A stretch of 64,000 nt of DNA from Magnetococcales bacterium (GTDB lineage: Bacteria > Pseudomonadota > Magnetococcia > Magnetococcales > UBA8363): positions 1,617 through 65,616 of the forward strand of contig JADGCN010000003.1 of NCBI GenBank assembly GCA_015228975.1, given 5' to 3'. A model generated the notes under the pieces. It was not told where the DNA came from, did no database searches, and worked only from the letters and a program-made list of their open reading frames with translations. Below, piece by piece: positions 1 to 44,714 of the stretch. Within the stretch, counting starts at the first letter, position 1; every line of letters begins with the position of its first letter. A program made the position numbers and the translations under genes.

Positions 1-801
1 CTGGAGGTGGAGCAGTTGCTCAAGGGGATGCAACTGCACACGGTTTGTCAATCGGCCAGTTGCCCCAACCGGGGTCACTGTTGGGGGGAAGGGGAGGCGG
101 CCTTCCTGATCCTGGGCAATGTGTGTACGCGACGCTGTGGGTTTTGCGATGTGACGACGGGTCGTCCGGGGGCTGTCGATGTTGAGGAACCACGGCGTTT
201 GGCCGCGGCGGCAAAGATCATGCGCTTGAAGCACGTCGTGATCACCTCGGTCAATCGCGACGATTTGGACGATGGCGGCGCTTTCCAGTTCGCCGCATGC
301 ATTCAAGCGTTGCGTGCGGCGCGGGACGTACCCGTCATCGAGGTGCTGACCCCGGATTTTCAGGGGGATTTGCCCAGTTTGGATCGGGTGTTGCAGGCTG
401 GTCCCGATGTGTTCAACCTGAATGTGGAGACGGTATCCCGTCTTTATCGGGAGGTTCGTCCCGCCTCAAACTATGAACGGGTGCTGGGTATGCTGGCCTA
501 TGCCAGTCGGATCGGGCAGGCGGTTGTCAAGTCGGGCATCATGCTGGGTTTGGGGGAAACAGATGAGGAAGTGATGGATACCCTGAAAGACTTACGCACG
601 AGTGGCGTGACCATGCTGACGATTGGACAATATTTGCGACCGAGTCTGTCGCACAGGCCGGTGGCGCGTTATGTGCCGCCCGAGGCCTTTCAAGCACTGG
701 GTGAAGAGGCGTATCGGTTAGGGTTTACCCGGGTGGCGAGCCATCCTTTGGCACGATCCTCGTTTCATGCGAAAACGTTGTATGATGGCTCGGCGCTTTA
801 G
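1..801 (+). CDS. lipA: Lipoyl synthase LipA (5' end outside window)
   Basis: The frame is open to the left window edge. It has the LipA N-terminal Cys cluster (CQSASCPNRGHC) followed by the radical-SAM motif CTRRCGFC. The rest aligns by eye with LipA, including the SSFHA-type C-terminus. Confidence 0.9.
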   Translation: MEVEQLLKGMQLHTVCQSASCPNRGHCWGEGEAAFLILGNVCTRRCGFCDVTTGRPGAVDVEEPRRLAAAAKIMRLKHVVITSVNRDDLDDGGAFQFAACIQALRAARDVPVIEVLTPDFQGDLPSLDRVLQAGPDVFNLNVETVSRLYREVRPASNYERVLGMLAYASRIGQAVVKSGIMLGLGETDEEVMDTLKDLRTSGVTMLTIGQYLRPSLSHRPVARYVPPEAFQALGEEAYRLGFTRVASHPLARSSFHAKTLYDGSAL

Positions 802-810
802 GATGGGGTA

Positions 811-1524
811 TTGGCTGGAATGCGGGGGCTTGGAAACATGAAGTCCGAGGTTGCCAAACCGAATACCTGCCCGTACGATTTGTGGCGTCCCGGTCGGGTG
901 GACTATGCCTTGGCATTGACCATGCAGCAACAACGGGTGGAAACCTTGTTGACCCGGGGTGGACCCAATCTGCTCTTGCTGTTGGAGCATCCCCCGGTCT
1001 ATACCATGGGGCGTTCTGGGAAACGGGATGAAGTATTGGCGATGCCACCCGGTCACGCCCCGGTTCCACTCATCCTGACCGACAGGGGTGGTCGGGTGAC
1101 GTACCATGGTCCGGGGCAGTTGGTGGCCTATGTGATTCGTGACCTGCGCCCCGATACCGGGCGGGTATTGGACCATGTGCGGCGTTTGGAAGCGGTGGTA
1201 TTGGCAACCTTGACCGCTTTCGGGATACAGGGGATGAGGGAATCCGGCAACCCGGGGGTATGGGTGGCGGGGGAAAAAATAGCGGCGTTGGGGGTGCGAA
1301 TCCGCCGGGGTATCACCTACCATGGTATCGCCATCAATCGGGATGTGGACCTGACGCCCTATTCCGGGATCATACCGTGCGGTCTCCAGGGTCGTGGGGT
1401 GACCTCACTGGAACGCCTGGGGTGTCGGGTGAGTGAGACGGTGTTGCAAGAAGAAGTGATGCGTGCGTTTCGCGATGTTTTTGCGGCGCGCCTGACGGAA
1501 ATTTTCCCGGAAATCAAAACGTGA
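811..1524 (+). CDS. lipB: Octanoyltransferase LipB
   Basis: Lies directly after lipA. Shows LipB-like motifs RGGRVTYHGPGQLV, KIAALGVRI..GITYHG and IIPCG. The start is uncertain (TTG 811, ATG 820 or ATG 838). Confidence 0.85.
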   Translation: MAGMRGLGNMKSEVAKPNTCPYDLWRPGRVDYALALTMQQQRVETLLTRGGPNLLLLLEHPPVYTMGRSGKRDEVLAMPPGHAPVPLILTDRGGRVTYHGPGQLVAYVIRDLRPDTGRVLDHVRRLEAVVLATLTAFGIQGMRESGNPGVWVAGEKIAALGVRIRRGITYHGIAINRDVDLTPYSGIIPCGLQGRGVTSLERLGCRVSETVLQEEVMRAFRDVFAARLTEIFPEIKT

Positions 1525-1537
1525 ACAGGACGTTGCC

Positions 1538-1978
1538 ATGAGAACGATCGAAACGCCCCTGCTGACAGCCGACATTGTGATAGAGCTGGTGGATTATGAT
1601 CATCGTCCCGTGGTTTTGATCGAGCGGAAAAATCCCCCTCATGGCTGGGCCATTCCGGGGGGATTCGTTGATCGCGGGGAACGGGTGGAGCGGGCCGCGG
1701 TGCGCGAGGCTTTGGAGGAAACCGGCTTGCAGGTGACCTTGATCGCCCTGCTCGGGCTCTATTCGGCACCGGATCGGGATCCGCGCTTTCATACGGCGAC
1801 GGCCCTGTATGTTGCCCGGGCTTCCGGGCAGCCCGTGGCCCGGGATGATGCCAAACAGGTGGCCATTTTTGCGGCGGACCAGTTGCCGACCGGCTTGGCT
1901 TTTGACCATGACTTGATGATACAGGATTATTTGGCATGGCGCCGGGAAGGGTGTGTGGCACCACTCAGGGGGGAATGA
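1538..1978 (+). CDS. NUDIX hydrolase
   Basis: Nudix box GGFVDRGERVERAAVREALEETGL fits GX5EX7REUXEEXGU. The 146-aa size is typical. Confidence 0.8.
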   Translation: MRTIETPLLTADIVIELVDYDHRPVVLIERKNPPHGWAIPGGFVDRGERVERAAVREALEETGLQVTLIALLGLYSAPDRDPRFHTATALYVARASGQPVARDDAKQVAIFAADQLPTGLAFDHDLMIQDYLAWRREGCVAPLRGE

Positions 1979-1981
1979 TCC

Positions 1982-3343
1982 ATGCGTAAAAAAATCGGTG
2001 TGATCGTTCTGGGGCTGTTGCTGGCTGCGGTGATGATTGCCCAATCGTCCCGGGCAACGCTTCCGACCCAGGTGAATGGCCAGCCGTTGCCATCCCTGGC
2101 CGACATGTTGGAAGCAGTGGTTCCCGCCGTGGTCAACATTACCACGGCGACCCGTATCCGCACTGTGGAGAATCCCCTGCTCCGTGACCCGTTTTTCAGC
2201 CGTTTTTTCAATCTGCCGCAGATGGAACGGGAAAAAACGCAGCAAAGTCTGGGTTCCGGGGTGATCATTGATGCGCAGAAGGGGTTGGTTGTGACCAACA
2301 ACCATGTCATTCAAAAGGCGGATACCATTTCGGTGACCTTGCGTGATGGGCGTACCTTGCAGGGCAAGCGGGTGGGTTTGGACGGCGATACCGATCTGGC
2401 CCTGATTCAAATCCCTGCCGATGGACTCAAGGCGGTGGTCCCTGGTAATTCGGACACGCTACGGGTTGGTGATTTCGTGGTGGCCATCGGCAATCCGTTC
2501 GGTTTGGGGCAAACGGTGACCTCAGGTATCGTCAGTGCCCTGGGTCGCAAAGGATTGGGGATCGATGGGTATGAAGATTTCATTCAGACCGATGCCTCCA
2601 TCAATCCGGGCAATTCGGGGGGGGCGCTGGTCAATTTGCGCGGTGAACTCATCGGTATCAACACGGCTATTCTCGCCCAGGGTGGCGGCAATGTGGGGAT
2701 TGGGTTCGCCATTCCCATTTCCATGGTGCAACAAGTGGTGAAACAGCTTGTCCGCTTTGGCGAGGTGCGACGGGGTTTGATGGGGATCAGTTCCCAGGAT
2801 TTGACCCGGGAATTGGCCAAAGCCCTGGGGGGTAATCCGCGTCAGGGGGCGGTAATCACCCGGGTTGTCCCGAAATCACCAGCGGACAAGGCGGGTTTGC
2901 GACCCGGGGATGTGGTGGTTGAGGTGAATGGCCGTCCTGTGCGGGATTCGGGGAGTTTGCGCAATGTATTGGGCCTTTCGATGATTGGCGAACAGGTTAC
3001 CCTGGAGTTTTTGCGCGATGGCAAACCCAATCGGGTGACCGCCGAGGTTACGGAACCGCGTGCCCGACGCGTGGAAGGCAAACGGATCGATGCGCGTTTT
3101 GTAGGGGCGCTACTGGAAATGGTGGAGGAGGGGGAGCAGGCACAGCCCATCGCCGTGGTCAGCGTCCAGCCCAAAAGTCCCGCTTGGCAGGCCGGGTTGC
3201 GGGAAGGGGATCGCATCCTGGCGGTCAACCGGCAGGTCGTCAACTCCTTTGAAGGGCTGGCGGCAATCGTCAAGCAGAATGATAGCGAGATGCTCCTTAA
3301 TTTACAACGTGGCCAGGAGGGGATTTATATCCTCGTGCATTGA
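1982..3343 (+). CDS. DegP/DegQ (HtrA) family periplasmic serine endoprotease
   Basis: N-terminal hydrophobic signal or anchor. Trypsin-like triad contexts TNNHV, DLALIQ and GNSGGALVN. Two PDZ-like segments at the C-terminus. Confidence 0.9.
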   Translation: MRKKIGVIVLGLLLAAVMIAQSSRATLPTQVNGQPLPSLADMLEAVVPAVVNITTATRIRTVENPLLRDPFFSRFFNLPQMEREKTQQSLGSGVIIDAQKGLVVTNNHVIQKADTISVTLRDGRTLQGKRVGLDGDTDLALIQIPADGLKAVVPGNSDTLRVGDFVVAIGNPFGLGQTVTSGIVSALGRKGLGIDGYEDFIQTDASINPGNSGGALVNLRGELIGINTAILAQGGGNVGIGFAIPISMVQQVVKQLVRFGEVRRGLMGISSQDLTRELAKALGGNPRQGAVITRVVPKSPADKAGLRPGDVVVEVNGRPVRDSGSLRNVLGLSMIGEQVTLEFLRDGKPNRVTAEVTEPRARRVEGKRIDARFVGALLEMVEEGEQAQPIAVVSVQPKSPAWQAGLREGDRILAVNRQVVNSFEGLAAIVKQNDSEMLLNLQRGQEGIYILVH

Positions 3344-3422
3344 CAAGGGGGTGGGGATCCCCTTAACCAGGAGGGGGAGACCGTGTTGTTAAATCAAGGG
3401 GTTCATGGGCGAAAAAAGGTGA

Positions 3423-4505
3423 TTGATCGTGGCGGGTAGTCAAAAAGACAGACATTCATCCCCTGGATTGAAGCGGAAATTGCGAGGTATCGGCGCGTTG
3501 TATTCTTGTGCGACCGTGTTTTTTTGCTATTTCGGTCTGTCCATGGCATGGTCGTTAGCGGCTTTGGCCCCGGAGGATCCCCGTCCCCCCTTGGAACCCG
3601 AACGCTCCTGGGACGCCATTGTGACCAAAAAAGAGAGTTTAATGGTCAAATATATGGATCTGGATCCGTTGGGACTGCACGGCCAGGGGCGCTTGGTGTT
3701 ACACTCGCTGCATCCCCTGGTGAACACCATCTCCTTTGACAAGGTGACGGGCAATCCCGAGTTGTGGCTGAAACGTATGGCGGGATTTTCGGCCTTGGCC
3801 CATTGGTTGGTTACGCGGCAGCAGTTGGGGGAGATCAAACTGGCCGGCCTGGAGGTGTTGATGACCGCCGAAGGGATTGATTTCAAGTTTGATCGGGCCG
3901 ATATCAAGGACGGGTATCTGCTTCAAGGACGTGGGCGCTTTGCGTTTGATGGACGATGGGCTGTACGCTCGGGGGCGTTATGGCTCAGCAGACCGCCGTT
4001 TAAGGATTTGGACAAACCTTTTGCCCGCCCCATGGGTTATGGCACTTTGGATGCTTATGGTGCCAAGGGGCGCTTCAAGGCGGTGATGGATGAGGCGTTT
4101 GCCTTGGATGCCAGCACTGGCCATGTGGAAGCCAATGCGGTTTGGAACGATGCGGTAACCCGGGGCGACATCGACAAGGTGGAGGCGGAATGGGGTGTGG
4201 AAATGACCACATTTCGCGTCAGTGATGCCTTTTTTGAACAGGGCCCCCGGGATTTGGCGCACGAGTTACTGACATATGCCGGTTTGACACCAGCCTGGGG
4301 TATGGCTTTTCCACGCATTACCTTGTCGGGCAGCGTTACCGGACCGAACTATAAGGCCCATGCCTTGCGGTTGTCGTCACCAAGCTTGCAGGTGTGGGGC
4401 ACAGCCCATGGCATCTGGTATCCTTTGCCCGGTTCCATGAACGTGGAAGTGACTGCCAAAAGCCCCGGTCGGGATATGCGCCAATTCGTTTGGCCGGGAA
4501 AATAA
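3423..4505 (+). CDS. Hypothetical membrane-anchored protein
   Basis: 360-aa ORF with one N-terminal hydrophobic helix (GALYSCATVFFCYFGLSMAWSLAALA). I recognise no family motif. The start may be GTG 3429, which sits 6 nt after AGGTGA. Co-oriented with motA. Confidence 0.5.
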   Translation: MIVAGSQKDRHSSPGLKRKLRGIGALYSCATVFFCYFGLSMAWSLAALAPEDPRPPLEPERSWDAIVTKKESLMVKYMDLDPLGLHGQGRLVLHSLHPLVNTISFDKVTGNPELWLKRMAGFSALAHWLVTRQQLGEIKLAGLEVLMTAEGIDFKFDRADIKDGYLLQGRGRFAFDGRWAVRSGALWLSRPPFKDLDKPFARPMGYGTLDAYGAKGRFKAVMDEAFALDASTGHVEANAVWNDAVTRGDIDKVEAEWGVEMTTFRVSDAFFEQGPRDLAHELLTYAGLTPAWGMAFPRITLSGSVTGPNYKAHALRLSSPSLQVWGTAHGIWYPLPGSMNVEVTAKSPGRDMRQFVWPGK

Positions 4506-4554
4506 AGAGGAGAAAAAGAACGGGTCATGGGGATGATTCGTTTGCGAAAAGTAT

Positions 4555-4582
4555 TAAAGGTTTTCCAGTGTTTGCCCGACTT
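4555..4582 (+). promoter_or_regulatory. Possible sigma-28 (FliA)-type promoter upstream of motA
   Basis: TAAAGGTT-N11-GCCCGACT compared with the enteric consensus TAAAGTTT-N11-GCCGATAA. The -35 is good and the -10 is weak. It sits about 87 nt upstream of the motA ATG. This is a by-eye match only. Confidence 0.25.
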
Positions 4583-4668
4583 GATACCCATGTCGGGGAA
4601 TGCTTGCTGTATGCGGTGCAGGACGTTTTCCAAGGGGCCTTTTTGCAACAACATGGGAAAATAATGGC

Positions 4669-5424
4669 ATGGATCTCGCAACAGTCATCGGAATGATTCT
4701 TGCGTTTGCTGCGGTTGTCGGTGGCATTCTGTTGAATAGTGGCCTGAAAGTGTTTTTCAACCTTCCCGGGCTTCTGATCGTGGTTGGGGGGACGGTGGGG
4801 GCGATGCTGATTCGCCACAAAATGGCCGATGTATTGGCTTCGTTCACCTTTTTAATGCGGGCGGTGATCGTCAAGACCCAGGACCCCGCCAAGGTGATCG
4901 GACAATTGATTGAAATGGCGACCATCGCTCGCAAAGATGGCATATTGGGATTGGAAAAGTTCAGATCGGACAATCCTTTTTTGCAGGTGGCCATCAACCA
5001 TTGCGTCGACGGCGCCGATCCGGAATTCCTGGAAAGCGTTTTGACAAAGGAACTGAGTTACATGGCCCAACGCCATGCCCGGGGTATCAGCGTGTGGGAG
5101 GGTGTTGCGGAGATCGCCCCGGCCTTTGGTCTGATGGGAACCTTGGTCGGCCTGGTGCAAATGCTGGCCAGCGCGTCGGATCCGTCGGCGGTGGGGCCGG
5201 GTATGGCCGTGGCGGTTTTGACCATTTTGTACGGCATGTTGATTGCTCATGGGATCGCCATTCCCATCTGTACGAAATTGGCGACCTACAGCAAAGAGGA
5301 ACAGATGGTGCGTCAGGTCATCATCGATGGCATGATCGGCATTCAAAAAGGGGTGAGTCCCCGATTGTTGCATGAGGCGTTGCAAGCCGCCCTGCCGCCG
5401 GCGGAGCGCGGAGCCATGCCGTAA
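4669..5424 (+). CDS. motA: MotA/PomA-type flagellar stator protein
   Basis: The 251-aa form starts at the ATG at 4669 (MDLATVIGMILAF...). It shows the four-TM MotA/ExbB/TolQ pattern with conserved Pro contexts (IAPAFGLMGTLVGL and HGIAIPICTKL). The longer ORF from 4600 has no support. Confidence 0.85.
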   Translation: MDLATVIGMILAFAAVVGGILLNSGLKVFFNLPGLLIVVGGTVGAMLIRHKMADVLASFTFLMRAVIVKTQDPAKVIGQLIEMATIARKDGILGLEKFRSDNPFLQVAINHCVDGADPEFLESVLTKELSYMAQRHARGISVWEGVAEIAPAFGLMGTLVGLVQMLASASDPSAVGPGMAVAVLTILYGMLIAHGIAIPICTKLATYSKEEQMVRQVIIDGMIGIQKGVSPRLLHEALQAALPPAERGAMP

Positions 5425-5478
5425 CGAACCGTGGCGTATTATCGGACGGGAAGATCTTACATGGACAGGTTTTAGTTG

Positions 5479-6273
5479 ATGGCCCAGTGCCCCGCATGCA
5501 AAAAGCCAGTTGTGACGGGATTGAACTCGTTTTCCGGTTTGATGGTCCTGCTGTTGGCTGTCTCTCTTTGGATGCTCTCCTTTGCCCGGTTTGACGGGCC
5601 AAAGTTTGATGAAGCAGCGGGTTCCATTCGCCGCGCTTTGCATGCCCCGGCGCTTTCGGGCAGTTCCGCACCCCTGTCATCCTGTGGCCAGGAGCCAAGT
5701 CTGGCGGAATTCAATCAGGAAATCGTCCTGGTCCATCTCCTGGACCAGATGAACGTGTTGCTTGCCAAACAACTGACCAGTTCGGAAGCGGAGATTGTGG
5801 CGACGGATCGTGGCATCGTCGTCCGTTTGGCAAGCGATTTTTTGTTTCAGCCCGCCAATCTGCAATTTCGCAAGGAATCCCTGCCCGTGTTGCAGGGATT
5901 GGCAACGCTTTTGGTCGGGGTGGAGAATGCCGTGTTCGTCAGTGGTTATACCGATAATGCCCCCCCTCCGGCCGGTTTACCATTTCCATCCAATTGGGGG
6001 TATTCCGCCGGCATGGCGGCGAGTGTGGTACAATTCTTGAGTGAAACCTCCGGGATGGATCCGTCGCGTCTCCAGGCGCTGGGTCTGGGGGAGTTTTCGC
6101 CTCGCCAACCCAACGCTACCGATGCGGGCCGGGCCGCCAATCGCCGGATTGAACTGTTTATTTCGCGCATCAGACAGGCACCGATTGTGGAAAAAGTCGT
6201 GCAACCGCCAAAACCAGCCCAGGATGGGGAACCGAAGGTCCCAACCTTGGAACCAGCGGCGGTGGTTCCCTGA
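5479..6273 (+). CDS. MotB-like protein with OmpA-type C-terminal domain (atypical, no channel Asp)
   Basis: One TM helix (GLMVLLLAVSLWMLSF) aligns with the MotB/PomB plug-TM region. The C-terminal OmpA-like motifs are SGYTDN...SNW...NRRIELFI. It follows motA after 54 nt. Confidence 0.75.
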   Translation: MAQCPACKKPVVTGLNSFSGLMVLLLAVSLWMLSFARFDGPKFDEAAGSIRRALHAPALSGSSAPLSSCGQEPSLAEFNQEIVLVHLLDQMNVLLAKQLTSSEAEIVATDRGIVVRLASDFLFQPANLQFRKESLPVLQGLATLLVGVENAVFVSGYTDNAPPPAGLPFPSNWGYSAGMAASVVQFLSETSGMDPSRLQALGLGEFSPRQPNATDAGRAANRRIELFISRIRQAPIVEKVVQPPKPAQDGEPKVPTLEPAAVVP

Positions 6274-6291
6274 CAACCATGGAGAAGGGTC

Positions 6292-6888
6292 ATGGCAGCC
6301 GTTACACAAAAACCCGGGGATAATCAACAACGCGCCTTTGTACGCGTCGACGACTATTTGCCGTTGTCCTGGCGTCGGGTTGGGGCCGAAGAGTTTGCCG
6401 AGGTCATGGCAACCTACAAAAAGTCGCAAACCTTTCCCGTCGTGCCCGACGACATCCAGACGATTCTGACCAATCTGGAGGTCACCGATAAAATTGTGTT
6501 GTTGGAGCGCTCCGATCCGGTATTGGCGCGTATTCTGGCGCGCATGGATATGAAGCTCAACATGTTGCTGAAGGTGTTTTATCCCGGTACCGAAGCCAGG
6601 CCCATGGTGCCCACTTGGGTGAATCTGAGTGGTGGTGGTGTGGCCTTCAAGGAGGCGGGCCTGGACGCCAAGGTGGATGACATTCTTGAACTCAGGTTGG
6701 CGTTATCCCAGGATTCTTTGGCCTCCATCCAATGTTTTGCCCGTGTGGTGAAAATTTTCCCCCCTGACCAGGGTGGATTGATCAAGGCGGCTTGCCAATT
6801 TGAACCCATCCTCGATGGGGACCGGGAAAAGTTGATCCAGCATATTTTCAAGCGCCAGTCGGAATTGTTGCGGGCCAAACGGAGTTAA
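6292..6888 (+). CDS. PilZ-domain protein (split c-di-GMP motifs)
   Basis: RxxxR (RAFVR, aa 14-18) and D/NxSxxG (NLSGGG, aa 111-116). The RBS GGAGAAGGG lies upstream of the ATG. Confidence 0.75.
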   Translation: MAAVTQKPGDNQQRAFVRVDDYLPLSWRRVGAEEFAEVMATYKKSQTFPVVPDDIQTILTNLEVTDKIVLLERSDPVLARILARMDMKLNMLLKVFYPGTEARPMVPTWVNLSGGGVAFKEAGLDAKVDDILELRLALSQDSLASIQCFARVVKIFPPDQGGLIKAACQFEPILDGDREKLIQHIFKRQSELLRAKRS

Positions 6889-8699
6889 TGGTCACGGTAA
6901 CAACTGGAAGATCTTTCATGGCAGAACATTTTGCAGACAGTGCGCAACCGGAAAATCTTTTATTTTGGTACCGCCGCGTTTCACCAGCGCAATTGGCGGT
7001 GATCCGGGAGTGTCGCACCAAGGGGGTACAGATGCCCGAGGCGCGACCGGGTATGGGGGAAGCGGTCGCGAGCCTTTTGGCCAAGGAGGCGGGGATCGTG
7101 CCATCGACGGCACCCCGGGGCCAACAGGGATTGGCCCGTGCCTCTGTTTTGGAGGCGATGAACCGTAAATTCAATTTATTGTTGGGATTGGTTTATCCGC
7201 CGGAGTCGGTGGTACAGAGTGCCCCGGTGATGTTGGATCCAGAGGGTGCGGGGGTGGTGGCTTGGCTGAAGGATCCCAGCTTTGCTGAAAATGATTGTGT
7301 CGAATTGCGGTTTCTTGCGAGTGCGAAACTGCCCTGGCCGTTTCACAGTTATTGCCGGGTGGCGCGGATGGCGCAGGAGAATTCGCGTCCTGGTGTTCGG
7401 GTGGAATTTCGCTTTGAAACGGTTCACCCGAATGTCCCCGGTCTGGAATCGCCACCTGCCAGAAAATTGCCACTTCCCAAGCGGGACAGAGTTCCAGCCA
7501 AACCTGCTGTTGCCCCCCCCAAGCCTGTTGTTCCACCCCCCTCGCCCCCCCCGGTAGCACCGCCGGTACCAGCGACTGCCAAACCGAGCGGTCCCGTCAC
7601 ATCCGTTCGGGCTTCCAAGCCGGATTTGCCCAAGCCGGTTCCGGTTGTCGCAGAGAAGGGCGAGGATAAATACGAACGCATGTTGCTGGAAGGGATGAAA
7701 ATGTCGCGGGCGAAGATTGGTGATGCGGTCGTCAAGAAGGGGAATGACCCTTTCCTGGCCTCGCAACCCCAGGTGGACAAGCGGCGTGATTTTCGTATCA
7801 ATGATCGCATCCCTTTTATCTGGAGTCATGTCACCGAAGAATCCTTTAAGGAGGCCATGGCGACCTTTCACAAGGATAAGGCGTTCACTCTGCGAACCAT
7901 TATCCGCAATCAGCAAAAAATATTGACCGACTTGGCCAATGTTCAGGAGGTATTGAAACGCAAGCGCTCCAAGGCCAGAAAACATGTGGATTGGCACCGC
8001 GACCGTCTCTCCTGGTTGTTTTTGCGGGCTGCTTCGGAAAACGAGGAGACCTATTATCAACACATGACGGAATTGTTTATGGTCATAGCGGCTGATTTGG
8101 CCAAGCAGGGGGGTGGGGCGATCAGTCAGTGGAGCATGCAGGCGTTGTCGCTGCTGCGCAATATGATGGAGCTGAAACAGACACGCGATCAGTCCAATCC
8201 CATCACCGAGGCCAACGCGGTCAAAAAGGCGGAATCGGGATTGGCGGATGTGGAACGGCAGTTGCCCAAGGTGTTGGCCAAGGTGGAGGAGGGGGATCCG
8301 GCGTTGGCTGCCAAAATGGCCATGTACAAAGAGGCGATTGGTGCCATCGATTTAACCCTCCATGATCGACCGGTTGGCAAGACGGCTGATGGCAAGGATC
8401 TCTATACGGTGAATATCAGTGCTACGGGACTGGCCTTTCGTACGCGCAGATTGTGGGTGAAAAAGGGTGACTTGTTGGAAATGCGGGTGTTTTTGAGCAG
8501 CGATGGCAAAAAATTTGAACCGGTCAATACCTATGGTCGGGTGGTGTTCGTCCATGGGCCGGTGGACAATAAACTCAAGGTGGCCACCTTTATCGATCCC
8601 AAGCCTGCCTTGTACGAACAAAAAATTTACCTGCACATTGCCCGTCGGCAACGGGAAATGCTTTCGGAGCGGGCCTCCGTTCGGGATGACGATTTTTAA
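6888..8699 (+). CDS. Large PilZ-family protein: degenerate N-terminal PilZ-like half, Pro-rich linker, C-terminal PilZ with long insertion
   Basis: RRDFR (aa 299-303) and NISATG (aa 509-514). The N-terminal 180 aa are paralogous to the preceding PilZ protein but lack both motifs. A P/A/V/K-rich linker spans aa 186-255. The start overlaps the upstream stop (TAATG). Confidence 0.7.
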   Translation: MVTVTTGRSFMAEHFADSAQPENLLFWYRRVSPAQLAVIRECRTKGVQMPEARPGMGEAVASLLAKEAGIVPSTAPRGQQGLARASVLEAMNRKFNLLLGLVYPPESVVQSAPVMLDPEGAGVVAWLKDPSFAENDCVELRFLASAKLPWPFHSYCRVARMAQENSRPGVRVEFRFETVHPNVPGLESPPARKLPLPKRDRVPAKPAVAPPKPVVPPPSPPPVAPPVPATAKPSGPVTSVRASKPDLPKPVPVVAEKGEDKYERMLLEGMKMSRAKIGDAVVKKGNDPFLASQPQVDKRRDFRINDRIPFIWSHVTEESFKEAMATFHKDKAFTLRTIIRNQQKILTDLANVQEVLKRKRSKARKHVDWHRDRLSWLFLRAASENEETYYQHMTELFMVIAADLAKQGGGAISQWSMQALSLLRNMMELKQTRDQSNPITEANAVKKAESGLADVERQLPKVLAKVEEGDPALAAKMAMYKEAIGAIDLTLHDRPVGKTADGKDLYTVNISATGLAFRTRRLWVKKGDLLEMRVFLSSDGKKFEPVNTYGRVVFVHGPVDNKLKVATFIDPKPALYEQKIYLHIARRQREMLSERASVRDDDF

Positions 8700-8717
8700 A
8701 AGCTCGGAAACCTACTC

Positions 8718-9761
8718 ATGAACGTAAGCATCGGCATGAACCTGCAGTCGGGTGCCTGGGGGGGGGGCAACCAGTTCGGGCGGGCCTTGAGCCAGTATTT
8801 ACTGGATCATGGCCATCGGGTGAGCCACGATTTGTCGGCGCGGGATCTGGATATCATCCTCTTGGCGGAACCGGATGCCCGGTTAAAAATTTCCGCCTAT
8901 GACCATCGGGCCATTCTTCGCTATTTGCTGCAAAAAAACAAGAACGCCATCGTCGTCCATCGCATCAATAACACGAGCGAGGCCAGGGACGATAACAAGA
9001 AAAAATTCAACAAATTCAGAATATACGCCAACCAGATCGCCGACCATACCATTTTTGTCAGCCAATGGGTGAAGGAACGCTATGAAGAGGCGGGCTTTGC
9101 CGCGAAACGTCCCGCAAGCGTCATTTTGAATGGCAGCGACAGTCGGTTATGGTCTCCCGGCCCGGCCAAAAAAACGCCGGGAAAGCGTTTCAAACTGGTG
9201 ACGCACCATTGGAGCAACCATTGGAACAAAGGGTTTGATGTCTATCACAAGCTGGATCAACTGCTGGCCCATCCCAGGTGGGCTTCCCGTCTGACAATGA
9301 CCTACATTGGCCGGGTGCCCAGCGATTTTCATTTTGTAGAGGTCCGACATGTGCAACCGTTGTCGGGGGTGGAATTGGCGGAAGAGTTGCGGCGACACGA
9401 TGCCTATATCACCGCATCCCGTTTTGAATCGGGGGGGCATCACAATTTGGAAGCGGGGCTGTGCGGCTTGCCATTGCTCTACTTGAACAGCGGTGCCATG
9501 GCGGAGTATTGTCAGGGTTTTGGGATTGAATACACCGTGGAAACCTTGGAGGAAAAATTGGAGGAGATGCTGGCCACCTGGCCCGATTGGGTGGAGCGCA
9601 TGGCCGATTTTCCCCATACGGCGGATGCCATGTGCCAACGATATCAGGATTTGTTCATGGAGTTGGTTGCCAATCGTGATGATGTTTTGGCCCGTCGCCG
9701 CTGGTTCAAGCGCATCCCCTGGATGGTGTCCGCCATGATGAAATCCGGCAGGCCAACCTGA
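8718..9761 (+). CDS. GT-B fold glycosyltransferase (GT4-like)
   Basis: N-terminal GGGNQF nucleotide-sugar GT-B signature. The C-terminal ESGGHHNLEAGLCGLPLL matches the E-x7-E region of retaining GT4-type enzymes. Confidence 0.7.
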   Translation: MNVSIGMNLQSGAWGGGNQFGRALSQYLLDHGHRVSHDLSARDLDIILLAEPDARLKISAYDHRAILRYLLQKNKNAIVVHRINNTSEARDDNKKKFNKFRIYANQIADHTIFVSQWVKERYEEAGFAAKRPASVILNGSDSRLWSPGPAKKTPGKRFKLVTHHWSNHWNKGFDVYHKLDQLLAHPRWASRLTMTYIGRVPSDFHFVEVRHVQPLSGVELAEELRRHDAYITASRFESGGHHNLEAGLCGLPLLYLNSGAMAEYCQGFGIEYTVETLEEKLEEMLATWPDWVERMADFPHTADAMCQRYQDLFMELVANRDDVLARRRWFKRIPWMVSAMMKSGRPT

Positions 9762-10888
9762 TGGGGACTCTGCCGCCGGCAAGCGACTGGCCGGCTTTAC
9801 AGCGGGCTGTTGAAAATGCTGTCTTGCCATCGCCCCCTGCAAAGAGCAGGATTTCCCGTCTTGTCGATCCCATCATTCCGGCATTCTGGAACACCTTCAG
9901 GAAAAGGCGCTTTCCCAACGCGATCTACATCTTGACCTACCACAGCGTTGTTGATCCCGGGCAACGGGAGACATGGGAACAATGCTACCGCAAAGGAGAG
10001 ACGACAGTTGACCAATTGCGCGGGCAATTGGAATTCATGATGCGCCATATGACCCCCATGGCGTTGAGTCAAATGCCGCGGTTATGGGCCCAAGGGGGAC
10101 CGGACCGTCCCTGTTTTGTGGTCACTTTTGACGATGGCATGTCCAACAATCGCACCCATGCGCACCCTGTCGTACAGGCTTTGGGAATAACCCCCGCTCT
10201 ATTCGTCTGTTCCGAATTTGCCATGCAGCGGCAAACATTGTTTCGGATATTGGCGGCGGTCCTGGTACAGCAAGGGCACGCCTCTGAGCTGGCGGTCAAT
10301 TTGCGCGCCAGCTTTCCGCAATGGGTGTGGCCGGATGGCGGGGAAGATTTGTTTCATGCGACGAAAAATCAGTATTGCGGTGGCGCGATGGTGGACGTGA
10401 TTGATGCCACGTATCGTGCGTGCCTGGGGGATCCCCGGGAGCTGGCGGTCCATTTGGATCGGGATGGGGTGGCGCACCTTGCCACGCATGGTTGGGAGAT
10501 CGGCAATCATACCCGATCCCATCATCTGTTGGCTTGGCAAACTCAGGAAGAGGTGACCCGGGCCATCCAGGAGAGTGCCGACTATTGGCGGGATGCGGGG
10601 ATTCCACTGATAGATTTCATCGCCTATCCCATTGGTCGCGCCCAGGATGTCGGGCCGGAGGTCTGGCAGGCGATGCAACGGTTTTCCCATGTGCATGGCA
10701 TGTTTTGCAATGGAGGCGTCAATTTTTCGTTAAACCGCTGCGAATGGATGCGTTTCAGTTTCGGGCGGCATACCGACCCGGACGTCCTGGAAAAGATCAT
10801 CAACCAGGAAATCCGAAGAACACAGGTTGCCCGGGCTACCCTACCATCGTCCCAGGAAGGCCCCCTCCAAAACCCAGCGGCGTCGTAG
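9761..10888 (+). CDS. Polysaccharide deacetylase (NodB homology domain)
   Basis: NodB motif 1 is VTFDDGMSNN, with later His-containing motifs (IGNHTRSHH). The start overlaps the glycosyltransferase stop (TGATG). Confidence 0.8.
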   Translation: MGTLPPASDWPALQRAVENAVLPSPPAKSRISRLVDPIIPAFWNTFRKRRFPNAIYILTYHSVVDPGQRETWEQCYRKGETTVDQLRGQLEFMMRHMTPMALSQMPRLWAQGGPDRPCFVVTFDDGMSNNRTHAHPVVQALGITPALFVCSEFAMQRQTLFRILAAVLVQQGHASELAVNLRASFPQWVWPDGGEDLFHATKNQYCGGAMVDVIDATYRACLGDPRELAVHLDRDGVAHLATHGWEIGNHTRSHHLLAWQTQEEVTRAIQESADYWRDAGIPLIDFIAYPIGRAQDVGPEVWQAMQRFSHVHGMFCNGGVNFSLNRCEWMRFSFGRHTDPDVLEKIINQEIRRTQVARATLPSSQEGPLQNPAAS

Positions 10889-11983
10889 CCAGGGATTACC
10901 GCACAGGGTGTTGAGCGCGGTTTGCCGGATGAACAAGGGGAGTGCTTGCAACAAACCACCGATCCGGGTTGAAAAGCCGTTGCCTTGGAGTGAGGCCCAT
11001 TCTTTGCCATAGTCTGTGAAATCCTGTCCCGTGGGATTTTTCAGGATGGCTGCGGCGGCGAGGGTAGCGCTGATTCCGGCGGGGCCGATACCTTCGCCAC
11101 TCAAATCGTGGGCAAGACCGGCGGCGTCCCCCACCAACAGGTAACGTGGTCCTCCCAGATCGGGTCGGATCCCACGCCAGACCGCGTAGGAATGACCGAC
11201 AAAAGGGGACAATGACCAGGAGTCGGGGAGGATGTCTTCCCGTTGCAGGCGTTGTAAAAAGCGATGCCGGCGAACGGGAATGGCGGGACCTGAACGGGTC
11301 AGGGCACCGACGCCAATGTTCAAAAAATCCCCCTTGACGAAATACCAGGCATAGCCGTCACACTCCGGTTCTGGATAGAGTACTGGCATTCCCGATCCCA
11401 GCCTTGATTGTTGCAGTTTGGCGGCACCAATGGGAATTTCGCTCATTTGCGCGGCAACGGTGGTTCGGTATTGCCAAATGGCGCGGCCTGCCACAGCCCT
11501 GGCTACGGGACAGGAGGAACCGCCCGCGCCCACGATATGCTCTGAGGTGATGTGCTGGCCTTTGATCAGGCAATGGACGCAATCCTGGTCAAAGATGACG
11601 CGTTCGACCCGGTGACCCTCCAGGATATCCGCCCCGGCGGCGCGAGCGCGTTCGAGCAGAAAGGCATCGAATTCGTGGCGCAGGATGCCGTAACTGACCG
11701 GCTCCGGCCAATGGGTGACCTGGAGACCTTTGCTGAGGCCGATGGCGACCCGGGTGATGGGGATGAGGAGATGGGGATAGGTGGTTGGGTCAATTTCCAG
11801 GGCATGCAGGGCATCCCGGGTGACCCAGCCGGCGCAAGGCTTGAATCGCGGGAATGTTTTGGCATCCAGGAGCAGGACATCGCGTCCGGCCCGGGCCAGT
11901 TTCCACGCAACCATGGCCCCTGCCGGTCCCCCGCCGACGACGACGGTTTGCCGTAGCGTTGTATTGTTACTATTGGGTTGCAA
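10841..11983 (-). CDS. FAD-dependent oxidoreductase, geranylgeranyl reductase family
   Basis: N-terminal dinucleotide-binding motif VVVGGGPAGAMVAWKLARAGRDVLLLD. A later GDAAG motif (LLVGDAAGLAHDLSGEGI) is typical of this family. Confidence 0.75.
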   Translation of the reverse strand: MQPNSNNTTLRQTVVVGGGPAGAMVAWKLARAGRDVLLLDAKTFPRFKPCAGWVTRDALHALEIDPTTYPHLLIPITRVAIGLSKGLQVTHWPEPVSYGILRHEFDAFLLERARAAGADILEGHRVERVIFDQDCVHCLIKGQHITSEHIVGAGGSSCPVARAVAGRAIWQYRTTVAAQMSEIPIGAAKLQQSRLGSGMPVLYPEPECDGYAWYFVKGDFLNIGVGALTRSGPAIPVRRHRFLQRLQREDILPDSWSLSPFVGHSYAVWRGIRPDLGGPRYLLVGDAAGLAHDLSGEGIGPAGISATLAAAAILKNPTGQDFTDYGKEWASLQGNGFSTRIGGLLQALPLFIRQTALNTLCGNPWLRRRWVLEGAFLGRW

Positions 11984-12764: not shown

Positions 12765-12911
12765 TTTAAAGTTTGATCGTGCATTCCACCTCATTGCCGG
12801 ACCCCAGATAGCGCACGTCATCAAAACTGGCTTTGACGGCGATGGCGATGCCCCTGCCATGGGTATCCAGCATCCGTTCGGGGTTGAAATCCAAATAGGG
12901 TTCGCTATCAA
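12765..12911. repeat. Direct repeat copy B (~147 nt, inside the 3' end of the REC+GHKL gene)
   Basis: Partner of 12006-12152. Confidence 0.85.
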
Positions 12912-13662
12912 ATCCGGAACCATCATCACGAATGTGGAAGCTGATTTCATCCTCTTTGCGCGTGAAAAGCACCACCACATGTTTCTCCTGGTTTTCCGGC
13001 AAGGCCAGGCGACGTTTTATTTCCTCCTCGAGTTTATTATTACTATTGAGGATGCCTTTTTCCTCGTAGGTGATGCCCAAGTTGCCATGTTCTACGGCAT
13101 TGATCAATATTTCCCGCAATCCGATTGCTGCCTTTTCCGGATTGGGACAGGTCAAGGACAACAATACCGACAATTGAAAGGCCTCGGACATGGTCTGAAT
13201 CCGAAACCGCGCCTCTTCCATATGCAAAGAGAGCGGACAACGGGTCACCTGAATTTGTCCATACAGGCATTGGTGTGCCGTTTTCCGGTTGATGGCGGCC
13301 TGGACGATCGCGAGCAGGATGGAAATATCCAACGGCTTGGTCAGATAATAGAAGGCGCCAAGTGACAACCCCCTGGCGATATCATCGCTGTTTTTGCGAC
13401 TGGTTGTGAATATGACAGGTATTCTTCTTGTGTATTTTGAGGCATGCAAACGTTCACATACCTCGAATCCATTCATTCCCGGCATTTCCACATCGAGCAG
13501 GATGGTATCGATATTCTCGGTTTGCGCTGTTTTCAGGGCATCTTCACCGTTGGTGGCGACGAGAACCCGGTAATCCTGGCTCAAGGCTTTCGCCAATACT
13601 TTGATATTGCCGGGGATATCATCGACGACCAATACTTTGTGCCGCTTATCGTTTTCGGTCAT
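12766..13662 (-). CDS. Response-regulator receiver fused to a GHKL/RsbW-like ATPase domain
   Basis: REC motifs are KVLVVDD...[14 protein letters not shown]...TKP. The C-terminal half has N-box-like NAVEHGN, G1-like RDDGSGFD and GRGIAI. No HisKA H-box is present. Confidence 0.8.
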
Positions 13663-16520
13663 TTTTTGTTATTATCCTTATGCAATGTGAGTTGCTTGGT
13701 AATGGCCTCCAGAAAAACGAGCGCACCAGTGAAATCAACTTTTTCAAGTTTGTCCGCCAAGGCATCCGTGTTTTTCAACAGCTCGGCATCACCACAGGCT
13801 ACAATGTGTGGTCTGAGAGTTTCAAACACGTCCAATGATTCAAAATAGTGCCCTTCGACCAATTGCGCCAGTTTGCGCACCAAGGGAAGAACCTCGGATA
13901 AATTCAAAGGGGCGTTTTCGGTTGGCGGGAGGGTTGCGGCAAAAAGGTCATCCGTCTGTTTCATCGCGCCGATGGATTGGATCACTTCGGACAAGGCTTC
14001 TTCAAAGTGGGTCAATAAATCTCCTATACAATGGGAATTTTCCCGTAACCCCTTCTCAAGGAGGGACGTTGTTTCAAACAGGCGTGTTGCTGATATATTG
14101 CCCGCTATCCCGCGTATACTGTGGGTAAGTTGCGCGGCCGTTTTCATGTCATCTTTTCTTTTTCCCGCCAGGGTGGTACGAATTTCCCGGGCCACATGGG
14201 CGTAATCACGGTGAAATTCGTAGAGCAGGGAGCGCAATAACTGGCGATCACCGTTCAGCCGTTCCAGGCAGTTGGCCATGTCAATGCCGGCAAGATGTGA
14301 CGGCAACGGGGAACCTTCATCCGCTTTGTTTTTTTCAGCGGTTGCATGCAACGTGATTCCAAGGCCTTCCCGCTTGCGGATCCACTGGCACAGTTTGTCA
14401 TAAAAAATTGTTCTTTCCACGGGTTTGGCCACATGGTCGTTCATCCCGGCTTTCAAGCATTTTTCCCGGTCTCCCGCCATGGAGTGGGCGGTCATGGCGA
14501 TGATGGGCAATTCCGAAAATCCCAGTTGGTTGCGAATTGTTTGCGCAGCTTCAAAACCATCCATTCGCGGCATTTGGATATCCATCAGCACCAGGTCCAA
14601 TTCCAATCCCATTTCCTTGACCCGTTGCACCGCCTCCAGACCATCCCAAGCCATTTCCACGATCACGCCGACCGATTCCAGAAAACCTTCCGCCACCTGT
14701 CGGTTGATCGCATTGTCTTCCACGAGAAGTATCCTGGCACCGCCAATGCGCTGGGCAATGGCCGCAAGATCTGAGAAATCGTCCGATTGACGGCAGGCTT
14801 TGCTAACGGATCGGCCAAACACATTCATGATGGCGTCGAACAACAAGGAGCAATTGACCGGTTTGGAAATCAATCCATCGACCTCGAACACATCCAACTG
14901 ATCCTTGATTTCTTCCTCACGACCATAGGGAACCATGAGCAGGAATTTGGGAGGCGCTTTGTCTTGTTCTGTGGCTTTGATGCGCATGGCGGTTTCCAGA
15001 CCATTCATCCCGGGCATCAACCAATCCACCAGGATCAACTGGAAGGGGTTTCCCTGTTCTTTCGCCTGGACCACCATGGTTTGTGCGGTGTTACCCGATG
15101 CGGTACCGCTGGCCGCGAAACCGAACATCGTCAGGGTATTGATGAAAGCTCTGCGTGCCGTATCGTTGTCATCAACGACCAGGACCCGAAGGCGCTGCAT
15201 GTCATCGGGAGTGATCATATCGATCATTTCCGTACCCAGGCGGCGTTGGAAAAGGGCGGTGAAATGGAACACGCTGCCCTGTCCCGGTTTGGATACCACC
15301 CATATCTTGCCGCCCATCATTTCGACCAATTTGCGGCAGATCGACAGACCCAATCCGGTACCGCCAAATTTGCGGGTGGTGGAGCTGTCGGCTTGGGAAA
15401 AAGGTTGGAACAATCTGGCGATTTGCTCCTCGTCCATGCCAATCCCGGTATCGCGAATGATGAACTCCAATTCGCAATCCCGTTCCGACTCCCGGAGCGT
15501 CCTGACCTGGATTTCGATTTCCCCTTTCCGGGTGAATTTCAGGGCATTGCTGACAAAATTCATCAGCACCTGTTCCAGGCGCAGGGGATCACCGAACAAC
15601 TCATATCGACATTCATCCGACATGCACATCACCAATTCCAGATGTTTTTCGGTGACCTGTGCCTGAAACATGTCGGACAGATGGTCAAAGATATCCCTGA
15701 CCAGGAAATGCGACATATCGAGTTCCAGTTTGCCCGCTTCAATCTTGGAAAAGTCGAGGATATCGTTGATGATGCGCAAGAGTGATCGGGATGAGTTGGT
15801 AATTTTGGTCAGATAGTCGCGCAGGCGCGGCGACATATCGGTCTGCATCGCCAGGTTGGAAAAGCCGATAATGGCATTCATGGGGGTGCGGATTTCATGG
15901 CTCATGTTGGCCAGGAACTGCCCTTTGGCCCGGTTGGCCACTTCTTCGTCCGCCTTGGCTTTTTCCAGTTCGATGAGGTATTGGCGTGTGGTCTCTTCGG
16001 CTCGGATCCGCTTGGTGATTTCAATTTCCAGATCCCGGTTGATACTCCTGAGTTCCAATTCCATTTTCTTGCGTTGGGTCGTTTCCTCTTCCAAGGCTTG
16101 GACGTGGCGTTCCTGTTCCAGGTGTTTTTGATGTAATTTTAAAAATATTTTAACTTTTGAAAGCAAAACGGCATTGTTGACGGGTTTTTGGATGAAATCC
16201 ACCGCCCCCAGTTGATAACCCATGATCCGCTTGTCTTCATCGGAGTGGGCCGCCGTTACGAAAATAATGGGTAAATCTTTCGTCCGTTCCGCCCCGTACA
16301 AGGCTTCCGCCACTTCAAAACCGTTCATTTCCGGCATATTGACATCGAGCAGAATCATGGCGAACTCATGATCCATGCACAACCTCAACACTTCAATCCC
16401 TGAAGTCGCTTCGATGATGTCGGTATCCAGGCGCTCCAGGATTCTCCGCATGGCAACCAGGTTGGCAGGGAGGTCGTCCACGATCAGTATCTTTGGCCGC
16501 GTATCACTCATGTTGGACAT
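13659..16520 (-). CDS. Hybrid sensor histidine kinase: REC-coiled coil-HisKA-HATPase_c-REC-REC-Hpt
   Basis: H-box [12 protein letters not shown]1 and G2 boxes ([22 protein letters not shown]). Three DD...D...K receiver patterns. C-terminal Hpt motif HSIRGIAGN. Confidence 0.9.
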
Positions 16521-17091
16521 TTCCCAATTGCTTCAAGGTGAGTGCAATGGCACTCAAAGGAAGTACCTGATCTGCCGCTCCATGGGCGATGGCATATCGG
16601 GGCATGAACGGGGATTCGGCACTCTGGGGATCCTGAACCAGTGTCATTCCCCGGCGTTGCCGAATTTTTTGCAACCCTGCCGTTCCATCCTGACTGGCAC
16701 CGGTCAATAATACCCCTATCAGACCCGCCTGGTAAACATCAGAAGCGGTTTCAAACAACACATCGATTGCGGGTCGGGAATGGTGTATTGCGGGATCGGT
16801 GGAGAGGGCCAGGGTGAAATCGGGTTCCACCAGAAGATGATAGCCAGGTGGGGCGAAGACGATGTGACCCGATTGGATGGGTTCCTTGTCCATGGCTTCA
16901 CGTACCGGCAGACGGCAATGCAGGGCCAATAACGAGCAACCTCGGGGGCCTGAACCATGGGTCGGCTGATGCTGGACCACCAGTATGGGAACAGGGAATC
17001 CTTCGGGAAAAACCGGGAAAAGGGTACGCAATGCCTGGAATCCCCCTGCCGATGCCCCGATGACAATAGCCCGGGGTCGGGGAAAGGTCAT
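16504..17091 (-). CDS. cheB: CheB-type protein-glutamate methylesterase, catalytic domain only (no receiver)
   Basis: Ser-His-Asp contexts are IGASAGG, LVVQHQP and TGASQDG. At 195 aa it has no N-terminal REC domain. Confidence 0.85.
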
Positions 17092-17921: not shown

Positions 17922-17925
17922 GGAC

Positions 17926-20214: not shown

Positions 20215-20217
20215 GGT

Positions 20218-23964: not shown

Positions 23965-24041
23965 GGAGCGTCTCTATCCGTTCTTAAAGATTCCGAACGG
24001 TTGCAGTGGTGTGATCATCGGTAATCATTCGGTTGCCACTT

Positions 24042-27157: not shown

Positions 27158-27166
27158 AAATTCCCC

Positions 27167-44431: not shown

Positions 44432-44714
44432 GTTATCCGTTTACCTTTTTCGACAACTTCCAAGAGCATCAACCCCTACATGACCCCTTGCATTGGGCAA
44501 GAATACCACGATCAATTTAAAATTGCAGACAAAAAAATGCTATTTATTCCTTGAGTTGGACTCTGTACCATTGACCGGGGCCGGGTAGTGTGGTGACAAT
44601 GATTGGCGAAAGAGACAAGATTGGCTTACCCTTTGAAGGACTTTGCCCCTCATTCATTGCTGGAAAGGGGCTCGGAGCCCCGAATTTACCCTTCAAACCC
44701 GCAACAGGGAGAAC

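Follow-up and report, generated by a model that had tools for sequence, protein, structure and literature searches.

We analysed a 64,000-nucleotide (nt) stretch of DNA from a Magnetococcales bacterium (assembly GCA_015228975.1, contig JADGCN010000003.1, positions 1,617 to 65,616 of the forward strand; hereafter the window, in whose own numbering all positions are given), which carries a four-gene operon, motA-motB-pilZ-1-pilZ-2, for a stator-type protein pair and two PilZ proteins. The best explanation, to which we assign a probability of roughly 0.55, was that this Magnetococcales-only operon encodes an accessory stator-type complex with its own cyclic di-GMP (c-di-GMP) receptors, which in the lineage of the window would serve as a c-di-GMP-responsive motor regulator that generates no torque. 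At the centre of this explanation stands a stator-type operon that appears to have lost the ion-coupling aspartate (Asp) of MotB many times, yet keeps MotB under purifying selection beside apparently dedicated c-di-GMP receptors. To our knowledge, the Asp of MotB/PomB is considered the single residue that a flagellar stator cannot do without, and no description of naturally Asp-less MotB proteins kept by selection was found in the literature searched.

All four genes lie on the + strand. motA (4669-5424) encodes a PomA/MotA-type stator A subunit of 251 amino acids (aa) (PF01618 MotA_ExbB, E 4e-25), and motB (5479-6273, with the start of the open reading frame, ORF, at 5476 or 5479) encodes the stator B subunit of 264 aa (PF00691 OmpA, E 2e-9). 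They are followed by pilZ-1 (6292-6888), which encodes a stand-alone PilZ protein of 198 aa (PF07238, E 1e-7), and by pilZ-2 (6918-8699), encoding a protein of about 593 aa with a C-terminal match to PF07238 (E 6e-5). The ORF of motA reaches back to 4600, and the probable start is the ATG at 4669, from which the protein begins MDLAT as in PomA and all homologues. Direct reading of the sequence gave gaps of 54 nt between motA and motB and 18 nt between motB and pilZ-1, and a TAATG junction (6886-6890) between the pilZ-1 and pilZ-2 ORFs. The true start of pilZ-2 is probably the ATG at 6918, 29 nt past the PilZ-1 stop, rather than the overlapping ATG at 6888, because all ten PilZ-2 homologues begin with MAE.

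The gene neighbourhoods were read at 22 loci, against which the window proteins were also compared by tblastn (comparison sequences are denoted by L and P numbers). The order motA-motB-pilZ1-pilZ2 was kept at every locus with enough contig, in 13 distinct Magnetococcales lineages, and the intergenic gaps within the module were short, mostly 10-120 nt with one of 248 nt in L002. Four of the loci (L008-L011) belong to the same species group as the window, since their four module proteins were 92-100% identical to those of the window. The 46 homologues of PilZ-1 included Magnetofaba australis IT-1 and Magnetococcus massalia MO-1, and all those bearing names were Magnetococcales. Homologues of PilZ-2 were found solely in metagenome-assembled genomes (MAGs) of Magnetococcales, and scanning 185,579 species genomes for the pattern of its alignment returned 10 loci, all from this order. 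As judged by these searches, the four-gene module is restricted to the order Magnetococcales.

MotA aligned to Vibrio PomA (8BRI) over its full length without gaps (residues 1-243, E 1.9e-52), keeping R88, K89, E96, P151, T158 and P199 of PomA. At residue 186 the window protein carries Ile, versus Thr in PomA; T158 is kept, and the Thr pair of the ion site is thus incomplete. The cytoplasmic segments, including the rotor-facing R88/K89/E96, were unchanged across the 13 lineages. In the segment IARKDGIL(A/G)LEK, the residues RKDGIL and LEK were identical in all 13, and AINHCVDGAD and IIDGMIGIQKGV were likewise invariant across lineages. The ratio of nonsynonymous to synonymous substitution rates (dN/dS) of motA was 0.02-0.13, placing it among the best conserved genes of the operon. 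The T185/T186 pair was intact solely in lineages that retain the MotB Asp. The best NCBIfam match of MotA was PomA NF006527, with 249 bits versus the equivalog cutoff of 341 bits; by sequence, MotA and MotB are divergent members of the stator families.

The segment SFSGLMV of the window MotB aligned over TFSDTIT of Clostridium sporogenes MotB and TFADLMS of Vibrio PomB, with Gly at the position of PomB-D24 (6YSF, 8ZYV), which bore out the claim of the original prediction that this MotB lacks the channel Asp. The Gly is not a sequencing error, because the same residue was present in the four further independent assemblies L008-L011. With the same residue in five assemblies, intact ORFs and a dN/dS of 0.15, a pseudogene was ruled out as well. 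In PomAB, PomB-D24, PomA-T158 and PomA-T186 are essential for Na+ conduction (PMC6677748). The OmpA-type peptidoglycan-binding domain was retained in the window MotB (PF00691, E 2e-9; GYTDN...NRRIE motifs). The match to MotB_plug (PF13677) reached 17.4 bits, under the cutoff of 24 bits, and the segment aligned to the plug region of PomB/MotB.

The residue at the Asp position was then compared across the family. It was Asp in L001, L002, L016, L017, L020, L004/L012 and P0064, Gly in the window group and L007/L014/L022/P0061, and Ser in L003, L013, P0062 and L021. The Asp was also replaced, by G, S, T, A or N, in P0070/72/73/79/80/82/86, so that five different residues take its place across the family. 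The 150 nearest MotB relatives, taken from an exhaustive profile search of 1.8 billion representatives, kept the Asp in 135 cases, and the exceptions (G, S, T, A, N) were concentrated among the top matches; an earlier word-index search had given 10 matches and little new. The Asp-less relatives that bear names were Magnetococcales, and four of them lie on contigs equal in length to those of PilZ-1 matches, as would be expected if they carry the same module.

In a neighbour-joining tree of MotA, PilZ-1 and PilZ-2, L004 nested within a clade of otherwise Asp-less lineages. This lineage keeps the Asp together with an intact N-terminus (CPPCKKGAP-W-TFADMM) almost identical to that of the outgroup. 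A second neighbour-joining tree, built from the periplasmic part of MotB, placed the Asp-less sequences at no fewer than four separate positions. These results supported at least three independent losses of the Asp among the loci whose DNA was examined, and probably five or more across the whole family, although both counts are approximate because the trees are rough neighbour-joining trees. A single ancestral loss was ruled out by the Asp-retaining L004 nested among Asp-less lineages and by the five replacement residues.

The loss of the Asp was accompanied by a change in the evolution of MotB. Identity of MotB to the Asp-retaining outgroups was 60% for L004 versus 39-41% for the Asp-less lineages, and in the transmembrane (TM) and plug segment it was 79% for L004 versus 36-45%. 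In the same comparison, PilZ-1 (53-56%) and PilZ-2 (39-41%) were flat and MotA showed a slight drop (63-70%). Acceleration after Asp loss was thus seen only in MotB within the operon. It might be supposed that the complex is a still-active motor, conducting ions and rotating through a non-canonical pathway independent of the MotB Asp, as MotB is under purifying selection, the plug-like segment and peptidoglycan anchor are kept, and MotA retains T158, P151 and P199. We regard this as very improbable, since no alternative acidic residue that might compensate was present in the TM segment of MotB in any Asp-less lineage examined, the Thr pair of MotA degenerates along with the Asp, the conservation of the TM segment falls as described above, and all three of D24, T158 and T186 are essential in PomAB.

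Despite these changes, MotB is under purifying selection and not a pseudogene. Between L007 and L014 (dS 0.6), the dN/dS of MotB was 0.15 for the whole gene, 0.12 for the OmpA domain and 0.29 for the N-terminus, and within the window group (comparison with L008/L011) it was 0.15-0.19. The peptidoglycan-binding motifs GHTD...NRRIE were kept in most Asp-less MotB proteins, with the exception of L021. The gene at this locus (9193-9981) encodes an outgroup MotB with Ser in place of the Asp, lost OmpA motifs and no Pfam match. MotA, PilZ-1 and PilZ-2 of L021 stay well conserved despite the degenerate MotB.

These data also bear on the possibility that motAB is a redundant paralogue in slow decay, in which the membrane part of MotB is dead and only the PilZ genes, perhaps with MotA as an anchor, still matter. 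The repeated replacement of the Asp by G, S, T, A or N, the faster evolution of MotB alone after the loss, the absence of OmpA motifs from the L021 protein and the N-terminal dN/dS of up to 0.29 would all be expected from such decay. It is nevertheless unlikely, if still to be taken seriously: an intact, full-length motB was in place at every one of about 20 loci, the dN/dS values of the whole gene and the OmpA domain were low, and MotA was among the best conserved genes of the operon. Moreover, the Asp-less lineages were separated from each other by saturated dS, and the Asp-less state is therefore long-lasting.

The stand-alone protein PilZ-1 carries both of the motifs by which PilZ domains bind c-di-GMP, R14xxxR18 and N111-L-S-G-G-G116, in intact form. 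In an alignment of 39 family members, R18, N111, G114 and G116 were invariant, and R14 and S113 were present in at least 90%, so that both motifs are conserved family-wide; PilZ-1 probably binds c-di-GMP. Between the first beta strand and the rest of the barrel there is an insert of about 75 residues, containing an interlock-type motif, D86-M-K88-L-N90 (DxKLN), of which D86, K88 and N90 were invariant in the 39 sequences. The AlphaFold2 (AF2) model consisted of beta1 (19-30), helices (32-96), a five-strand barrel (106-173) and a basic C-terminal helix (175-197). The top Foldseek matches of this model were to the tPilZ protein XCC6012 (3RQA/3PH1, E 4e-7, about 182 columns), followed by MotI (5VX6). 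The best sequence match of the family profile in the PDB was the PilZ domain of Bacillus subtilis MotI (E 1.4e-6). No match to a YcgR/PilZN family was obtained; PilZ-1 consists of one PilZ domain into which the insert is built. A tPilZ protein is defined by two helices between beta1 and beta2, an interlock motif [DENH]x[KR]h[DEN] and a basic C-terminal helix. The predicted structure of PilZ-1 fits this published architecture, and by analogy the protein is probably a tetramer.

PilZ-2, whose residues are numbered here from the ORF start at 6888, is made up of three parts: an N-terminal tPilZ-like domain, a Pro-rich disordered linker and a C-terminal PilZ domain with a six-helix insert. Its AF2 model, with a predicted local distance difference test score (pLDDT) of 66, placed beta1 at 22-31 and the first barrel at 108-179, had low confidence at 180-305, and continued in the C-terminal half with beta1 (304-315), helices (317-485), a barrel (508-568) and a helix (574-601). 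The N-terminal domain has degenerate c-di-GMP motifs and an interlock-type motif, NRKFN. In the C-terminal domain, DFRINDR was invariant, with Arg or Lys directly before it (the window has RRDFRINDR), and in the second motif, TVNxSxTG (TVNISATG in the window), N, S, T and G were invariant. PilZ-2 thus has the sequence features of a protein that probably binds c-di-GMP. A Foldseek search with the whole model gave no informative match for the six-helix insert. The linker (approximately residues 180-305, window 7425-7800) varied greatly in length and sequence among the homologues and was predicted to be disordered. The higher dN/dS of PilZ-2 is mostly due to this variable segment. Galperin and Chou state that fusions of tPilZ domains hardly ever occur and that a genome has one copy, so that a tandem tPilZ-like fusion encoded beside a stand-alone PilZ-1 is atypical.

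A promoter-like element, TAAAGGTTTTCCAGTGTTTGCCCGA, with the sigma-28-like pattern TAAA-N16-CCGA, was found at 4555-4579 on the + strand, 114 nt upstream of motA. It lies in a conserved stretch of about 45 nt that the window group has in common with the diverged lineage L013 and that contains TAAAG-N15-GCCCGA, and the rest of the intergenic DNA was unalignable; the background frequency of the pattern was 0.043 per kilobase per strand. In seven of nine other lineages (L004, L003, L007, L014, L001, L016, L021), a sigma-54-like TGGC-N8-TGC was located at -108 to -142 of motA. These matches came from a scan with the relaxed pattern TGG[CA]-N8-[TCG]GC, and the background of the sigma-54-like element was 0.59 per kilobase per strand. 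The type of promoter thus appears to have been swapped between lineages, being sigma-54-like in most and sigma-28-like in the window group and L013. A flagellar regulon could include promoters of either type. These motif matches also point to motA, rather than the preceding 360-aa gene, as the first gene of the operon.

The original prediction had also stated that no other flagellar genes are present in the window. Indeed, tblastn detected no MotA/MotB paralogue elsewhere in the 64 kilobases, and Pfam scans of about 45 ORFs detected no flagellar structural gene there. It can be asked whether the complex has been recruited, with no contact to FliG, to another envelope process such as a flagellar sheath or fibril apparatus or a signalling scaffold. 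Flagellar genes were adjacent to the module at no locus, the family is confined to an order whose flagellar apparatus is unusual, with 7 flagella and 24 fibrils in each bundle (PMC7175107), and recruitment of this kind is seen in the other 5:2 motors ExbBD, TolQR, GldLM and ZorAB (PMC11725899). We nonetheless judge a non-flagellar use to be quite unlikely, as the nearest sequence relatives are genuine flagellar PomA/MotA proteins and not other 5:2 families, the charged residues facing FliG are invariant, and the PilZ partners are similar to MotI and FlgX, which are known to bind stators.

We infer from the above that the accessory complex would work as follows. By homology, MotA and MotB would form a stator-type complex, MotA5:MotB2, anchored to peptidoglycan. 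PilZ-1, as a probable tetramer, and PilZ-2 would dock on the invariant cytoplasmic face of MotA, in the manner of FlgX, MotI and YcgR; MotI binds MotA in Bacillus, and YcgR does so in Escherichia coli. In the window lineage, the ion-binding site is destroyed by the changes of the MotB Asp to Gly and of MotA T186 to Ile, and the complex should therefore not turn ion flow into rotation. In a further and speculative step, the complex would act as a brake, dummy stator or scaffold that regulates the flagellar motor in a c-di-GMP-responsive way. A regulatory or structural role is suggested because the Asp-less MotB has been kept by selection together with its peptidoglycan anchor. As a more specific and only tentative proposal, a selected, naturally 'dead' MotA5B2-type stator with its PilZ receptors bound, which would keep both its peptidoglycan anchor and the face of MotA that binds the rotor, may fill stator sites in the densely packed, multi-motor flagellar bundles of these cocci and serve there as a brake or spacer under c-di-GMP control.

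If the proposed role is correct, the complex would be without precedent as a naturally non-conducting stator that regulates, and would show how a stator unit has been converted in nature from a torque generator to a regulator or scaffold. There would then be independent evidence for tPilZ proteins as general stator partners, and the occurrence of tPilZ proteins under stators, as with FlgX, would be extended to another phylum in a version that is apparently able to bind c-di-GMP. For the question of how magnetotactic cocci control their unusual multi-flagellar apparatus, the module would supply a defined set of genes.

Several observations weigh against the interpretation as a motor regulator. 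The accessory status is deduced from two premises of general background, namely that the cells are motile, as these MAGs come from magnetically collected and hence motile cells, and that an Asp-less MotB cannot drive rotation, as such a protein is non-functional in E. coli. No flagellar structural gene was found near the module at any locus examined, and for this reason the link to the flagellum is drawn only from homology and the promoter motifs. Both MotA and MotB scored below the NCBIfam equivalog cutoffs. The recurrent loss of the Asp, the faster evolution of MotB and the degenerate OmpA domain in L021 also fit a slow decay of MotB. As for PilZ-1, the AF2 model was of moderate confidence (pLDDT 75), and the Pfam tPilZ model PF16823 matched one of the 39 homologues (E 0.048); FlgX too is missed by sequence searches (PMC11725899). 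In addition, the 18 nt between pilZ-2 and the following glycosyltransferase gene contain no predicted terminator, and co-transcription with the sugar genes described below is possible in the window lineage.

The operon is flanked on both sides by genes in the same direction, and the ORF listing of the window confirmed seven co-directional ORFs on the + strand at 3423-10888. Upstream, a gene at 3423-4505 encodes a 360-aa membrane-anchored protein (N-terminal anchor) without Pfam or NCBIfam match. Downstream, a gene at 8718-9761 encodes a GT4-like glycosyltransferase with weak matches to GT4-type Pfam models, all under the gathering cutoffs, and a gene at 9761-10888 encodes a NodB-type polysaccharide deacetylase (Polysacc_deac_1, E 1e-13). 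The stop codon TAA of pilZ-2 (8697-8699) is followed after 18 nt by the ATG of the glycosyltransferase gene at 8718, and the junction between the glycosyltransferase and deacetylase genes is TGATG (9759-9763). The original prediction had described these seven genes and their tight junctions (TAATG, 18 nt, TGATG) with coordinates that direct reading found to be exact; the start of pilZ-2 was refined as given above. The 360-aa gene is probably transcribed separately, because its junction to motA (4505 to 4669) is 163 nt long and carries the promoter-like element. It sits between degP and motA, and the region upstream of 3423 contains lipA, lipB, NUDIX and DegP genes. Downstream of 10888 follow a convergent flavin adenine dinucleotide (FAD) oxidoreductase gene and a long hybrid histidine kinase array with CheB. 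The dN/dS values of the 360-aa gene (0.08), the glycosyltransferase gene (0.09) and the deacetylase gene (0.22) indicated that all three are real genes, the 360-aa gene being under strong purifying selection. The deacetylase was 82% identical to that of L011, the lowest value within L008-L011, versus 95-100% for the glycosyltransferase and the four module proteins, and thus evolves much faster.

None of these three neighbours belongs to the conserved module. Neither the glycosyltransferase and deacetylase nor the 360-aa protein gave any tblastn match, even at E<1e-2, at the compared loci outside L008-L011. The genes downstream of the module elsewhere were an ABC exporter with an HlyD-type protein (L003-6, L012), a SPOR protein (L002) and unknown genes, and those upstream were prmA/IF-2B-like, inositol phosphatase or integrase genes. 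A metagenome scan with the glycosyltransferase identified the contig L023, which encodes the glycosyltransferase (72% identity) and the deacetylase (53%), again with the convergent FAD oxidoreductase. This block (1410-4683) stands behind genes for MarR and a ParA/MinD-like ATPase and is accompanied by neither motAB nor pilZ. The GT4-like glycosyltransferase, the NodB-type deacetylase and the convergent FAD oxidoreductase (window 8718-11983) form a conserved block of their own. Since the glycosyltransferase-deacetylase pair is limited to L008-L011 at the module and stands alone in L023, it is, on this comparative evidence, an independent block that abuts the module in one lineage. A scan for sigma-70 promoters and terminators gave counts equal to the shuffled expectation and is thus uninformative.

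The comparison bears directly on the idea, put forward in the original prediction, of a c-di-GMP-gated, stator-derived module linked to surface polysaccharide. The linkage of MotAB to the two PilZ proteins was conserved, but the sugar genes were confined to L008-L011; of the full order from motA to the deacetylase, only motA-motB-pilZ1-pilZ2 was kept in the 13 lineages. Judged by what the original prediction itself named as grounds for refutation, the link to polysaccharide fails. The alternative offered at the same time, that of two adjacent units, is the better reading, and the remark that no system of this composition had been described agreed with our literature search, in which no description of the operon was found. 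We give hardly any credence to the view that the seven genes together make up a single c-di-GMP-gated machine, in which MotAB would provide the energy or the scaffold for driving or modifying the synthesis of surface polysaccharide. The genes are indeed co-directional and tightly packed in the window and L008-L011, no terminator is predicted between pilZ-2 and the glycosyltransferase gene, and an unrelated glycosyltransferase is encoded within a few kilobases in L021 and L002. Yet the three neighbours have no homologue at the motAB-pilZ locus in other lineages, L023 carries the glycosyltransferase-deacetylase-oxidoreductase block by itself, components for export or polymerisation are missing, and the glycosyltransferase matches GT4 models only below their cutoffs. 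The gene-order comparison and the isolated block of L023 together ruled out the tempting reading of the module as an exopolysaccharide machine, and the inference is corrected here.

Other genes of the window and of the compared loci were noted in passing. The region 12766-30976 on the - strand holds a dense array of response regulators and hybrid histidine kinases (with GAF, dCache, HAMP, PAS and Hpt domains), among which a CheB that lacks a receiver is encoded (16504-17091); CheR is also expected in it by synteny with L008. The array resembles a chemotaxis-like phosphorelay cluster beside the stator module, and a similar CheR/histidine kinase cluster lies downstream of the module in L021. About 40 kilobases from the PilZ genes, an EAL-CBS-GGDEF protein for c-di-GMP turnover is encoded at 46423-48480 (- strand) and, at 49562-51256 (+ strand), a protein that combines an FHA domain with two cyclic nucleotide-binding domains. 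A YhgA-like (Transposase_31) gene at 32101-33039 (- strand) and a RhuM-family gene at 56850-57896 (- strand) may mark mobile or island DNA. In L003, an Asp-less lineage, primase, terminase and integrase genes (1-6429), a prophage or island remnant, lie directly upstream of motA. At 44643-45758 (+ strand), this bacterial genome encodes a protein of the deoxyhypusine synthase family (PF01916, E 4e-32). A different PilZ gene, close to the magnetosome genes, is mentioned in one publication on Magnetofaba IT-1.

The module can finally be compared with known systems. The Pel, PNAG/Pga, cellulose (Bcs) and alginate (Alg44) systems resemble it in the parts list only, in that a PilZ protein, a glycosyltransferase and a NodB-type deacetylase are found side by side in one lineage. 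They differ in that the linkage is not conserved here, no PilZ domain belongs to a synthase or co-polymerase, export genes are missing, and the glycosyltransferase is a GT4-like protein below cutoff rather than a GT2 synthase. Vibrio PomAB is the nearest relative of the window MotA in sequence and structure (E 2e-52; R88/K89/E96, P151, T158 and P199 shared). It has the OmpA-type domain, and probably the plug-like segment, in common with the window MotB, and its T185/T186 pair is also kept in the Asp-retaining members of the module. In contrast, PomB-D24 is replaced by Gly and PomA-T186 by Ile in the window, where both proteins fall under the PomA/MotB equivalog cutoffs and adjacent flagellar genes are absent.

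The MotI (YpfA/DgrA) clutch and the YcgR/FlgZ/MotL/PlzD brakes are PilZ proteins that bind c-di-GMP and have MotA as their target. Among PDB entries, MotI matches the PilZ-1 profile best by sequence and is second-best by fold, and the RxxxR and [D/N]xSxxG motifs are intact in PilZ-1. PilZ-1 differs from these brakes in having a helical insert in its single PilZ domain instead of an N-terminal PilZN/YcgR domain, and the known brakes act on ion-conducting stators, whereas the stator of the module is apparently non-conducting in many lineages. In Campylobacter jejuni, every stator unit has the tPilZ protein FlgX beneath it (PMC11725899), and an operon joining motAB to tPilZ-like genes fits this association by analogy. 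As in FlgX-MotAB, a protein of tPilZ architecture, with helices between beta1 and beta2 and an interlock-type motif, is associated with MotAB; here, unlike in C. jejuni, there is a second, tandem tPilZ-like protein, MotB has no Asp, and the tetramer and the contact with MotA are predicted. By this comparison, the module would work like the pairs formed by FlgX, MotI, YcgR and FlgZ with their stators, and would be set apart from them by the operonic coupling, a tPilZ protein with c-di-GMP motifs, the tandem fusion and the loss of the Asp.

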